Notes under the pieces: generated by a model | The model's input: the letters and a program-made list of their open reading frames with translations, nothing else | Database searches by the model: none | What the model was told of the DNA's origin: nothing | UHGV virus genome: UHGV-0171999 | Strand: one strand, 5' to 3' | Source of the DNA: a virus | DNA length: 64,000 nucleotides | Part shown: positions 7,292-21,532 of the stretch, one piece after another | Numbering within the stretch: the first letter of the stretch is position 1 | Layout of the letters: each line of letters starts with the position of its first letter | Translations under genes and position numbers: made by a program

Positions 7292-7885
7292 ATGAACACA
7301 CTGAAGAAAATTGTTGAGTTTATTCGCACTAAACTTGGTTCTGCTATGGCTAAAAATTTATCTGTTGAAGAACAGTATACTGCTGCAGCAGCAAAACTAC
7401 TTGATAAAATTAAAGACCTAAAAACTGCTTCTGTTAAATCTATTAATGAAGAAAAACGTATTCGTGAACTTATTGTCGAAAAGAATCGACAGGCCGAATC
7501 AAAAGAGCGTGAAATTCGCAAGCTTCTTTCCGAAGGTCAAGATGTAACAATGCATGCTAAACTCGGCTTGCTATATCGTCGAACAGCTGAGCAGTTGACT
7601 ACTAAAGCTGATGGTTATGCTGAAATGCGAATTGAAATCGCCAAGAAAGTAGTTGAATTGGATGATGCTCGCCAAGAACTTGCAGTTAAATTGGAATATA
7701 TCCGTGAAACTCGTGCAGCAAATGCCCTTGGAATTAGTACTGCTGATGATGTAGTTGAAATTGCAGCGCTGACTAAGGTTGATATTGAAGATACTCTTGC
7801 TCGAGTTGAAACCTTTAATGGCAATATTTCTGGGGTTGAAACTACCTCTGCCGATGTTCAGGAATATATTAATTCTTTGAAATAA
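7292..7885 (+). CDS. hypothetical coiled-coil protein
   Basis: 197-aa ORF rich in heptad-like charged repeats; AAGGAAA Shine-Dalgarno. Confidence 0.6.
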
Positions 7886-7890
7886 TGATA

Positions 7891-7906
7891 AGGGGCTTCG
7901 GCCCCT
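7891..7906 (+). terminator. UUCG-tetraloop hairpin
   Basis: AGGGGCTTCGGCCCCT. Confidence 0.55.
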
Positions 7907-7926
7907 ATTACTTGGAGTAAATAGGA

Positions 7927-8532
7927 ATGAAAATGCAAAGTGATTTTAATTCAATGTTTGAAGAGTTCCAAAGACAGGTTGATGTTCCAGACCAATTACT
8001 AAATGCTCTTAAACGCATGGCAGAAGGACGTAATTACTATTGGGGTTCTTCATATGAAACTGATGAAAGTCTTTCTGGAAGATTTTCTAGAGGTAAAAAG
8101 TCTTTAATACGTCCTGGAATACTTATTAACAGTATTGAATCAATTCATTTATTAACATGCGATTTTGATGTTGAATTTACTGATTTCATTTCTCCTGAAT
8201 GGACGGTCTGTTATTTAAATGACGATTATGATTATCTTGGCGTTTATAGTTTAAGTGACGCATGGTTTAAACGTAATTTACAAAAGTCAAATTTATTTTA
8301 TATTGATACTACAGTAAAATTTCAGGGAAAGAAATATTTCTTTACTCTTATAGTTGACTCTGAAACAAAATATGAAAATAAGCGTATTCTTAGTAAAAAG
8401 AATATCTTGACTATTGTTGATGATCTTTTTGATAAATTCGTAGAAAATCCTAATTTTGAAAGCGATTTATTAGAAAAATTTGTTAAGGAATGCAGAGAAT
8501 ATGTCAAAGCCATCACTATACCTTCCAAGTAA
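7927..8532 (+). CDS. hypothetical protein, first of four consecutive genes sharing a conserved 3' junction motif
   Basis: 201-aa ORF; C-terminal LEKFVKECREY motif shared with the next three ORFs. Confidence 0.55.
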   Translation: MKMQSDFNSMFEEFQRQVDVPDQLLNALKRMAEGRNYYWGSSYETDESLSGRFSRGKKSLIRPGILINSIESIHLLTCDFDVEFTDFISPEWTVCYLNDDYDYLGVYSLSDAWFKRNLQKSNLFYIDTTVKFQGKKYFFTLIVDSETKYENKRILSKKNILTIVDDLFDKFVENPNFESDLLEKFVKECREYVKAITIPSK

Positions 8533-8893
8533 ACCTTTGAAGTATGAATTAAAGCGCCAGATAATTTCTACCGATGTATTAATGGGTCCTGTGGTAGCTG
8601 TATCATTTGTGATTCTGCTGATTGCTGGAATGGTTATAGACGTTATGACTGATATTGAATCTGGTGTAATATTTGGAGCAACGCTAATTCTTCCATTAAT
8701 AATTCCGCTTTTATTAGTACCTGTAAATTTGGTAGGATACTGGTATCAAGGAAGACATTATCGTAAACGCGTACGTGATTGGAAAGCACAGTGTAAAAAG
8801 ATTAAAAAGGAACACCAGCTTAAACTAGATATGTATGAATTTAATGAAATTATGAAATTTGTTAAGGAATCACGATGCAAAAGCCAAAACTAA
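8501..8893 (+). CDS. small membrane protein, paralog family
   Basis: Start chosen by analogy with paralog junctions (AAGGA...ATG); hydrophobic segments; C-terminal MKFVKESRCK. Confidence 0.5.
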   Translation: MSKPSLYLPSKPLKYELKRQIISTDVLMGPVVAVSFVILLIAGMVIDVMTDIESGVIFGATLILPLIIPLLLVPVNLVGYWYQGRHYRKRVRDWKAQCKKIKKEHQLKLDMYEFNEIMKFVKESRCKSQN

Positions 8894-9237
8894 ATAAAGT
8901 CAAATATTCGTTTCCTGAGGCACTATTAATTCTTGCTGTGTCAGTATTTGCAGCTCTTGCAGGTAGTTTTATTGGATTAATGATTGACTGTATTATTTTA
9001 AACATCGATGGTTCAGCGATTATAACAGAGGTTTGGAGTGAACTTCGTTTTACTATAGCGATTACATTATTTTCATTCTTTGGCACCATGTTATATTTTC
9101 ATTATGATAATTTTAAAATAAATTGGCAAAGAAAAAAGGATTACAAAATACAATTAAAAGAATATAATAGCTATATGTCTTATATTGAAAATGAATCAAT
9201 GAAAGAGTTTGTGAGTGATTGTAGGAAAATCGGATGA
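8875..9237 (+). CDS. small membrane protein, paralog family
   Basis: 120 aa; two hydrophobic segments; C-terminal KEFVSDCRKIG; AAGGA Shine-Dalgarno inside preceding gene's 3' end. Confidence 0.55.
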   Translation: MQKPKLNKVKYSFPEALLILAVSVFAALAGSFIGLMIDCIILNIDGSAIITEVWSELRFTIAITLFSFFGTMLYFHYDNFKINWQRKKDYKIQLKEYNSYMSYIENESMKEFVSDCRKIG

Positions 9238-9722
9238 TTTTAAAAACTCGCTGGTATGATTTAGATGATGGGGATGATGGCATTCCAGTTGATAGAGTTG
9301 ACTGGAATGGCTGTTCCGAAGATATGAAAAATTTGTTGATTAGGGAGTTTAGAATGGGATATCAACCAGTTAAGCCATCTACTATAACAGATGATAAATT
9401 CGTGTGTATTCAAAATGGCCGCGCTAAGTTAACGAATGCTGATTGGTTTACAAATAAGATTATGATTCTGTGGTATATCATTAGTCTTCCTGTGACATCA
9501 TTTGTATTTTGCTTCTTTGGAGAAAGTCCAGTAGGCAGAATGGGAGATTGGATTCTTTTAATCATACTTGTTAATATTTTGACAGCAGCAATACTATCAG
9601 GAATATGGTGTGTGTTCATCGAAATGCCATGGCGGTTACGTAAGCAGCAAAAGATTTTTGATGAAAAGAAATATACTCAAAATTTAAATAACTTTATCAC
9701 TGAATGCAGGAAATTAAAATGA
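9234..9722 (+). CDS. small membrane protein, paralog family
   Basis: 162 aa; hydrophobic segments; C-terminal NNFITECRKLK. Confidence 0.55.
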   Translation: MILKTRWYDLDDGDDGIPVDRVDWNGCSEDMKNLLIREFRMGYQPVKPSTITDDKFVCIQNGRAKLTNADWFTNKIMILWYIISLPVTSFVFCFFGESPVGRMGDWILLIILVNILTAAILSGIWCVFIEMPWRLRKQQKIFDEKKYTQNLNNFITECRKLK

Positions 9723-10159
9723 AAACACTATCAGCTGGTATTATCTTTATGACAGAAGATAAAGATTTATTTATGGGACGAGTTACTGGTTCTCGTAAAC
9801 ATGGAATGATGGCACATCGCTGGGATATTCCAAAGGGCCGCGTAGAAAATTCTGATTTAAACGCGCTAGATGCAGCACGAAGAGAATGCTTAGAAGAGAC
9901 CGGTTTTAGCAATTATAATCCAGACCTTCTAGAAGACCTAGGTGTATTTAAATATTCTAGTAATAAAGACTTACAGTTATTTTATTATACGATTCCAGTA
10001 GAGCATGAGATGTTTAGAAATTGCCATTGCGAGTCTTATTTTGAAAATAAAGATGGAGTTATGATTCCAGAGATGGATGCTTTTGCTCTTATTCCTCGTA
10101 CTCAGTGGCAATATGTGATGGGTCCTTCACTTTACCGAATAATGAACAGCCTCTTTTAA
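9719..10159 (+). CDS. nudE: Nudix hydrolase NudE (e.1)
   Basis: MKTLSAGIIFMTEDKDLFMGRVTG... and Nudix box RRECLEETG match remembered T4 NudE. Confidence 0.85.
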   Translation: MKTLSAGIIFMTEDKDLFMGRVTGSRKHGMMAHRWDIPKGRVENSDLNALDAARRECLEETGFSNYNPDLLEDLGVFKYSSNKDLQLFYYTIPVEHEMFRNCHCESYFENKDGVMIPEMDAFALIPRTQWQYVMGPSLYRIMNSLF

Positions 10160-10962
<803 letters not shown>

Positions 10963-21070: not shown

Positions 21071-21532
21071 ATGATTATTAATGAAAGCTCTTGGCACTAT
21101 AAATTATTCAAAATGTTTAACGACGAATGGAAACGACCTAAGACACTGTGCGCGTATTTTTGGTCTATTGTTATCCCTACATTTTTCGTTTCTTTTTTCG
21201 GATGTACTATACTCGCAGGTCTAACTATCATCTGTGCAGAAATCATGCAGAAATGGCTTATTTTTGGTAGTTTATGGACTCTTATTCCAGCAGCATTTAT
21301 ACTTGCCATTTTGCTTGTTTTACTTATTATTGGTTCATTTGTTATTCCTGCACAACTACATGAAAAATATAAAGATTATAAATGGAAAAAGGATTATGCT
21401 TTACATGTAGAAAATATTGATAGGGCGTATAAAGGTTTACCTCCTATTCAACCCAAGAAATCTATTATCATCGAATTTTTAAAAGCGTGTAAAGCTAAAG
21501 TATGTCCTGTTATTGAATATAAGGCTGAATAA
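21071..21532 (+). CDS. membrane protein
   Basis: 153 aa with several hydrophobic segments. Confidence 0.55.
   Translation: MIINESSWHYKLFKMFNDEWKRPKTLCAYFWSIVIPTFFVSFFGCTILAGLTIICAEIMQKWLIFGSLWTLIPAAFILAILLVLLIIGSFVIPAQLHEKYKDYKWKKDYALHVENIDRAYKGLPPIQPKKSIIIEFLKACKAKVCPVIEYKAE

Follow-up and report, generated by a model that had tools for sequence, protein, structure and literature searches.

A C-terminal peptide box shared by the e.5, e.4, e.3 and e.2 proteins of T4-like phages, a candidate docking helix

Four consecutive genes at positions 7927-9722 of the virus genome UHGV-0171999 lie upstream of nudE, overlap one another and end in nearly the same short sequence, which also contains or adjoins the ribosome-binding site (RBS) of the next gene. 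The stretch of DNA analyzed comprised 64,000 nucleotides (nt) and is called the window below. The question that this locus raises is whether the repeated ending is a nucleotide element of the gene junctions or a peptide, and what such a peptide would do on the proteins that carry it. We found that the ending, referred to here as the box, is best supported as a cytoplasmic amphipathic-helix motif that is C-terminal, is conserved at the protein level and is carried by modular proteins of one syntenic block.

The window belongs to Tequatrovirus, and sequence comparison revealed that positions 7292-10200 were about 95% identical to many T4-like phages. Comparison with T4 (NC_000866), together with the translations, identified the four genes as orthologues of T4 e.5, e.4, e.3 and e.2, followed by nudE (e.1) and then the lysozyme gene e. 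The earlier note had proposed a comparison with the e.2-e.6 region of T4, and this comparison bore out the orthology, as the gene order and the overlaps between e.6 and nudE/e were the same in the window and in T4. The products of e.5, e.4, e.3 and e.2 matched PHROGs families over their full length with E values of 2e-107, 1.5e-69, 1.6e-56 and 4.6e-78, respectively.

7927..8532, plus strand: e.5 orthologue, 201 amino acids (aa), 95% identical to T4 e.5; phrog_2607
8501..8893, plus strand: e.4 orthologue, 130 aa, 84.6% identical to T4 e.4; phrog_2604
8875..9237, plus strand: e.3 orthologue, 120 aa, 78% identical to T4 e.3; phrog_2330
9234..9722, plus strand: e.2 orthologue, 162 aa, intact, 79% identical over the 102 aa annotated in T4; phrog_2203

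Each of the four products ends in a box of the form F-[IV]-x-[ED]-[C/S]-R, encoded at the following positions.

8479..8496, plus strand: box 1, FVKECR of e.5 (TTT GTT AAG GAA TGC AGA)
8858..8875, plus strand: box 2, FVKESR of e.4 (TTT GTT AAG GAA TCA CGA)
9208..9225, plus strand: box 3, FVSDCR of e.3 (TTT GTG AGT GAT TGT AGG)
9693..9710, plus strand: box 4, FITECR of e.2 (TTT ATC ACT GAA TGC AGG)

The degenerate DNA pattern TTTRTNANKGAWTSNMGR matched the window only at 8479, 8858, 9208 and 9693 on the plus strand, compared with 0.03 matches in dinucleotide shuffles, in a test that is partly circular because the pattern was derived from the four sites themselves. The peptide pattern F[IV].[ED]C[RK], which is independent of the DNA pattern, gave three matches when the whole 64 kb window was translated in six frames, one at the C-terminus of each of e.5, e.3 and e.2, compared with 0.2 matches in shuffles. 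The shared gene ending is thus real and far beyond chance, and all four sequences listed in the earlier note lie where it had placed them. The peptide that it had read from them, F-(V/I)-x-(E/D)-C-R, holds for e.5, e.3 and e.2 but not for e.4, in which FVKESR is followed by the cysteine (…ESRCK).

The claim that each ending holds the RBS of the next, overlapping gene was supported at all four junctions, with the RBS lying in or just after the box. As evident from the sequence, AAGGAA or AGGAAA was present 6-10 nt upstream of each downstream ATG. The AAGGAA inside box 1 is the likely Shine-Dalgarno (SD) sequence for the e.4 start at 8501, and that of box 2 lies 6 nt upstream of the e.3 ATG at 8875. 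At box 3, the SD of e.2 is AGGAAA, formed by the Arg and Lys codons, and at box 4 the same hexamer lies 7 nt upstream of the nudE ATG at 9719. The source of the SD is therefore box codons 3-4 (AAG GAA) at the first two junctions and the Arg and Lys codons (AGG AAA) at the last two. The overlaps amount to 32 nt for e.5/e.4, 19 nt for e.4/e.3 and 4 nt (ATGA) each for e.3/e.2 and e.2/nudE; nudE itself has no box.

To place the box in a wider context, 49 loci anchored on the upstream neighbour e.6 were collected from about 12 Straboviridae genera (tblastn, IMG/VR loci and GenBank regions), and their downstream open reading frames (ORFs) were tabulated. Among the 411 unique ORFs of these loci, the relaxed pattern [FW][IVL]xxC[RK] matched 101 times in the last 26 residues and not once in the other 48,393 residues. 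The box was found in Tequatro-, Mosig-, Dhaka-, Gapriver-, Kanagawa-, Marfa-, Jiaoda-, Moon-, Ishiguro-, Biquarta- and Pseudotevenvirus, and it was kept across genera even where the remaining protein was unrecognisable. Essentially all of 47 loci showed the same order: e.6, a hairpin, an e.5-like box protein and 0 to 4 box proteins with two transmembrane (TM) segments. The e.5-like proteins ended in FIMECREY…, FIAECREY…, FIKHCREAVNG, FIKYCRKRVQK, FVDQCRAN…, FINLCRDE…, FVDYCRRT… or FIKKCRGMVK, and the two-TM proteins in FIKECRK, FIKECKS, FIKEVRRK, FLKEMRK, WIRSCRK or FIENCKNEK. Farther downstream, other small soluble box proteins were often present (…FIQMCRGKQNVS, …FLEYCRSDVQL and …FIARCRAK). 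After removal of redundancy, the extended consensus was φ(-3)-[ED]-[DE]-F-[IV]-K-E-C-R-[KRG], in which the hydrophobic residues at -3, 0, +1 and +4 fall on one helical face in a heptad-like arrangement.

Searches beyond these loci returned little more. Word-indexed homologue searches with e.3, e.5 and e.6 recovered close relatives only, and a joint e.3 and e.4 profile, searched exhaustively with HMMER against 1.84 billion representative proteins, yielded six clusters, all of them T-even e.3 or e.4; given these few clusters, the sequence families of the array are tiny, and the box alone unites them. A DNA pattern for E-x-F-I-K-E-C-R-K, run against IMG/VR, recovered Mosigvirus e.3 and two internal chance matches, in ribonucleotide reductase and in a winged-helix protein.

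Whether the peptide or the nucleotide sequence is constrained was examined in 122 distinct junctions. The box Phe was encoded by TTT in 84 and by TTC in 31, and the box Cys by TGT in 54 and by TGC in 38. All six Arg codons (AGA, CGT, CGC, AGG, CGA and CGG) were used, and the I/V/L position drew on nine codons. In about 80% of the junctions, 0-25 nt separated the box from the next start, and the box-to-start distance ranged from -7 to more than 100 nt, with the reading frame always kept. In 19 of the 122 junctions the box was kept though the next start was 38 to 258 nt away or the locus had no further gene, so that about one in six boxes had no nearby downstream gene start. Because the codons vary synonymously, the box is kept without an adjacent start and the SD arises from differing box positions, the constraint lies on the peptide. 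The conserved junction element of about 20 nt that the earlier note had described is accordingly not conserved as DNA, since every conserved position has synonymous codons and the distance to the start varies. The RBSs have come to lie in or behind the box, with a probable bias toward purine-rich codons, and translational coupling, as judged from the overlaps, appears to be real but secondary to the peptide. As this case shows, an apparent 'junction element' where genes overlap can in fact be a protein motif on which RBSs are superimposed.

The proteins that carry the box in the window were then compared. The description of the last three products as proteins with two hydrophobic helices was borne out by topology prediction: in e.4, e.3 and e.2, a pair of hydrophobic segments is flanked by a basic N-terminus and a basic C-tail (15, 9 and 9 Lys and Arg residues in the respective tails), and the loop between the segments is acidic or neutral. 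Because of this hydropathy and charge distribution, they are predicted to be N-in/C-in hairpins with a cytoplasmic box. In particular, e.4 has a 51-aa basic cytoplasmic tail ending in FVKESRCKSQN, the tail of e.3 ends in FVSDCRKIG, and in e.2 an N-terminal soluble part of about 74 aa precedes the two TM segments, with FITECRKLK at the end of a basic tail of 33 aa. The e.5 protein has no hydrophobic segment; its box FVKECR lies in the last helix and is followed by 11 further residues. The AlphaFold2 (AF2) model of e.5 revealed an α/β fold with a mean predicted local distance difference test score (pLDDT) of 64.6, in which the box is part of the terminal helix 180-195.

The earlier note had regarded the array as a tandemly expanded membrane-protein family and had called for pairwise and profile alignment of its members. 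In Smith-Waterman comparisons with shuffling, e.4 and e.3 gave z=7 (none of 500 shuffles reached the score), e.3 and e.2 gave z=5, and e.4 and e.2 gave z=1.9, and the scores of e.5 against each of the other array proteins were at shuffle level. Family profiles were built from the homologues in the 49 loci and compared by hhalign with reversed-sequence controls. The e.4 and e.3 profiles aligned over TM2 and the tail at 97.3% (E 2.7e-11; reversed control 6.7%) and still at 91% with the box deleted. Between e.2 and e.3 or e.4, only 12-14 box columns aligned (20-39%), and no alignment was obtained between these profiles once the box was removed; the e.5-like profiles likewise aligned with the TM families only in the box columns (11-17). 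On these alignments, e.4 and e.3 are judged to be tandem paralogues, and what e.2 shares with them appears to be only the box and the architecture of two TM segments with a basic tail. The e.5 protein is a soluble α/β protein that has the box alone in common with the others. The family claim thus stands for e.4 and e.3, which resemble each other beyond the motif, and falls for the soluble e.5, with its box-only match; the e.2 profile also matches in the box only.

Among 36 cluster representatives of Tequatrovirus e.3, the mean pairwise identity was 92% in the cytoplasmic N-terminus, 81% in TM1, 76% in the periplasmic loop, 82% in TM2, 94% in the cytoplasmic tail and 95% in the box. The faster change of the TM segments and loop fits either a conserved tail with a specific job and a hairpin that serves as an anchor, or diversifying pressure on the part that faces the periplasm. 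We also observed that the e.3 tail (window 9160-9225) reads …EYNSYMSYIENES-MKEFVSDCRK and that MAFFT pairs its YMSYIENES with the e.4 box region IMKFVKESR. Judging from this alignment, e.3 may contain an older box, now degenerate, behind which an extension of 9 residues carries the current one.

What might a terminal amphipathic helix do when it is attached to bodies as unrelated as soluble e.5, the two-TM hairpins of e.4 and e.3 and the separate two-TM protein e.2? The most economical function for such a motif would be that the box proteins bind a common partner or each other. We therefore tentatively favour, at somewhat less than even confidence, the reading of the box as a common docking or oligomerisation helix, with e.6 as the prime candidate partner. 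The box would bring soluble e.5 and membrane-anchored e.4, e.3 and e.2 to one partner at the cytoplasmic face of the inner membrane. The e.6 protein is named as the candidate because of its invariant adjacency and its membrane-remodelling-like fold, and its recruitment would parallel the anchoring of PspA by PspB/C and of LiaH by LiaI. PspB, PspC and LiaI are small membrane proteins that anchor PspA-family proteins in the Psp and Lia systems.

7292..7885, plus strand: e.6 orthologue, 197 aa, 99.5% identical to T4 e.6; upstream neighbour of the array

The e.6 protein is kept from T4 to Aeromonas phages with at least 50% identity and is always encoded directly upstream of the array. Its AF2 model (pLDDT 75.6, above 90 in the hairpin core) contains helices 2-22, 25-80 and 86-145, that is, an N-terminal amphipathic helix and a long helical hairpin. 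A Foldseek search of the PDB with this model returned Vipp1/PspA structures as the top eight matches (probability 1.0, E 1e-3 to 1e-2), with archaeal CdvB2 next in the list. The e.6 profile showed a weak, non-significant but collinear match to Vipp1 among the PDB sequences, with residues 1-145 against 1-147 and E values of 0.1-3. We regard a Vipp1/PspA-like e.6 as a lead and not as a finding, a possibility that falls short of an even chance. The further proposal that T4-type phages encode a PspA/Vipp1-like remodeller of the ESCRT-III superfamily in e.6, and that the box docks interchangeable adaptors that recruit or regulate it, is a doubtful one when taken as a whole. Soluble e.5 would then be one adaptor, and the rest would be two-TM anchors that vary in number (e.4, e.3, e.2 and others). 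The e.6-box system may serve, for example, to keep the membrane intact and the proton-motive force up during infection, or in the face of abortive-infection systems that form pores.

Several points weigh against docking to e.6. PspA_IM30 of Pfam matched none of 42 e.6 homologues, and hhalign of e.6 against a hand-entered sequence of E. coli PspA was not significant. The loci were gathered via e.6, and the co-occurrence of e.6 and box is accordingly shown in the e.6-to-box direction only. In e.4-type proteins the box Cys is replaced by S, V, I or M, so cysteine chemistry is not required by the box. In the low-confidence model of e.5, the helix that carries the box might pack on the core of e.5 itself. 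About 80% of the boxes sit right at a downstream start, and RBS selection likely contributes to codon choice (many AGR Arg codons and AAG-GAR). The data show the anatomy, the conservation at the protein level, the restriction of the box to C-termini, the synteny and the paralogy of e.4 and e.3, whereas we infer that the box docks, which partner it would bind and what role it would have in physiology.

The alternative that survives best is that the box is a relic of tandem duplication or unequal crossing-over at gene ends, with the last codons kept by the dual constraint of C-terminus and RBS and with no specific protein function. The paralogy of e.4 and e.3 fits this explanation, as do the e.5/e.4 and e.4/e.3 junctions, which are alike across the boundary and into the next start (M-S/Q-K-P-x-L). 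The close spacing of most boxes to a start codon is also expected from it, along with the SD-like AAGGA, AGGA and GAGG found in or just after the box and the frequent AGR Arg codons. However, the invariant F, I/V, C and R are not the positions that form the SD, their codons vary synonymously, and the 19 junctions without an adjacent downstream start retain the box. The box was also found on scaffolds without other detectable similarity and across genera whose e.6 proteins are only about 50% identical, and the complete lack of internal boxes in the residues scanned speaks against a relic as well. We consider this explanation unlikely.

In a second alternative, the two-TM proteins are superinfection-exclusion, immunity or lysis-timing factors whose periplasmic parts act, and the box is incidental. 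They are small, early inner-membrane proteins of a non-essential, plastic region, their copy number varies from 0 to 4 among genera, and their cytoplasmic parts change more slowly than the TM segments and the periplasmic loop. The identity to T4 was 78-85% for e.2-e.4 and 95-99.5% for the flanking e.6, e.5 and nudE, which is compatible with an arms-race interface. On the other hand, similarity to T4 Imm and Sp was not significant (shuffle z of -0.4 to 4.0), and the best score, Imm against e.4 at z 4.0, stems from TM composition. Scans of the four proteins with PADLOC, NCBIfam and Pfam gave nothing above noise. The same box on soluble e.5-like and other soluble proteins is left unexplained, as is the cytoplasmic tail being the most conserved part. 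This alternative is rather improbable; it is compatible with docking and does not exclude it.

C-terminal degrons are a general principle, and a third alternative takes the box and its trailing basic residues (…CRKLK, …VRRK, …MRK) as a degradation or quality-control signal by which a host AAA+ protease of the ClpXP or FtsH type times the removal of early proteins. The strictly C-terminal position of the box, often 0-3 residues from the end in the TM proteins, and the basic residue behind it would suit such a signal. The e.5-like proteins, in contrast, have 5-15 further non-conserved residues behind the box, the heptad-like hydrophobic face suggests helix packing over an unstructured tag, and there is no resemblance to known tag sequences. 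This alternative is highly improbable. Last, an RNA-level element upstream of each start, such as a translational-regulator binding site or an enhancer with the peptide as a by-product, is barely credible and largely refuted: the first two junctions of the window do share 16 identical nt (AAATTTGTTAAGGAAT) just upstream of the next start, but each conserved residue has several codons family-wide (six for Arg), the box-to-start distance varies and the frame is always kept.

Two specific candidates were rejected. A RegA-like RNA-level element failed on the codon variation. The capsid-targeting/prohead-protease site of internal proteins (M-K-T-Y-x-E-F-I-x-E) resembles a box written as E-F-I-x-E and was rejected because box position 4 varies (E, Y, Q, M, H, L, G and N) and because the box is C-terminal on membrane proteins.

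Further observations concern the surroundings of the array, the first of them its upstream border.

7891..7906, plus strand: GC-rich hairpin with a C(UUCG)G tetraloop, read from the sequence; a terminator-like match falls on the same palindrome

In nearly all of the 47 loci, a GC-rich hairpin, frequently capped by a C(UUCG)G tetraloop, separates the stop of e.6 from the start of e.5; a U-rich stretch and an SD follow it. Its stem sequences vary between genera, with the structure kept by covariation. The hairpin is probably a partial terminator or an mRNA 3'-end stabiliser that separates e.6 from the coupled e.5-to-nudE genes, and these genes read as an early, translationally coupled block that starts after it.

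At the downstream end of the array, the window and the T4 reference differ in annotation.

9719..10159, plus strand: nudE (e.1), Nudix hydrolase, last array-coupled gene (Pfam NUDIX E 2e-13; T4 annotation)

Compared with window 9234-9722, the e.2 gene of T4 NC_000866 (locus L001, 2988-3461) shows two 1-nt indels, a deletion and an insertion, separated by about 100 nt. Because of them, the e.2 product annotated in T4 has 102 aa, and a 161-nt 'gap' separates its gene from nudE; in the original frame the box FITECRKLK can still be read. The indels represent either a lab-strain pseudogene or a pair of sequencing errors. T4 also annotates nudE from an ATG corresponding to 9704 (151 aa), a start inside the codons of the e.2 box that lacks an SD. 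The start at 9719, from which other phage records annotate the gene, is preceded by AGGAAA at a distance of 7 nt and overlaps the e.2 stop as ATGA. From this start context, the 146-aa form is more plausible as the product than the 151-aa form.

Elsewhere in the window, only one other real ORF had an in-frame [FW][IVL]xxC[RK] match near its C-terminus.

21071..21532, plus strand: possible distant fifth box protein, 153 aa, two TM segments, tail …IIIEFLKACKAKVCPVIEYKAE

The cytoplasmic tail of this protein contains a box-like F-L-K-A-C-K twelve residues from the end, and hhalign against the e.3 profile reached 60% over TM2 and the tail. From its position we take it to be the counterpart of T4 nrdC.5, upstream of a 336-aa gene that we take as nrdC.4-like. 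It may be a distant fifth member of the box proteins, its membership being uncertain.

Genera other than Tequatrovirus have a second tandem array behind the box genes. It encodes 3-6 small soluble proteins (65-105 aa) with a different, strictly C-terminal motif, G-x-W-[VI]-S-S-S-x-x-C*, and the variants W-x-P-S-S-C* and F-W-F-x-S-S-M-S-C*. The loci with this array include L003 (3357-4151), L004 (3351-4594), L005 (5210-6288), L006 (5067-6117) and L012 (5363-6631). The family of G-x-W-[VI]-S-S-S-x-x-C* is absent from the window.

As for what was known of these genes, they are T4 ORFs recorded as hypothetical proteins, and the databases list four unrelated families with no shared C-terminal box. 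In PHROGs, e.5, e.4, e.3 and e.2 are split over four families with no assigned function. No model in a local Pfam copy matched any of the four, and e.5 homologues carry the precomputed Pfam label PF26876. In a limited literature search, e.2-e.6 went unmentioned in T4 functional-genomics papers, and neither the shared box nor any function was found described. The e.2-e.8 block is part of the 'dark matter' of the best-studied phage, and a shared, strictly C-terminal peptide turns it into one testable module with a common partner, a motif to mutate and a compartment. If e.6 is the partner and is truly Vipp1/PspA-like, the block would be a phage-encoded membrane-maintenance system with exchangeable anchors, which would bear on lysis inhibition, abortive infection and the phage's upkeep of the energised host membrane.

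We finally compared the array with known systems. The T4 genes e.5-e.2 (PHROGs 2607, 2604, 2330 and 2203) are direct orthologues of the window genes, with 78-95% protein identity; the reference copy of T4 e.2 is broken by the two indels, whereas the window e.2 is intact at 162 aa. T4 Imm and Sp, which act in superinfection exclusion, are small early phage envelope proteins like e.2-e.4, and Imm has hydrophobic segments, but they have neither the box nor a sequence relation to the array; the tail of Imm is different, and the T4 record lists Sp as periplasmic. Promoter/stem-loop cassettes and modular gene shuffling in the hyperplastic regions of T4-type phages are reportedly the subject of work by Arbiol et al. 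from 2010. The array region is likewise plastic: the number and type of box genes vary by genus, and a short conserved element marks the gene boundaries. In contrast to such cassettes, the boundary element in the window is coding and is conserved as peptide, not as DNA, and the genes from e.5 to nudE overlap without intergenic promoter/stem-loop cassettes. A close parallel to the proposed partner is PspA/Vipp1/LiaH, since e.6, encoded next to small inner-membrane proteins that could anchor it by their C-terminal helices in the cytoplasm, is likewise a helical hairpin with an N-terminal amphipathic helix.

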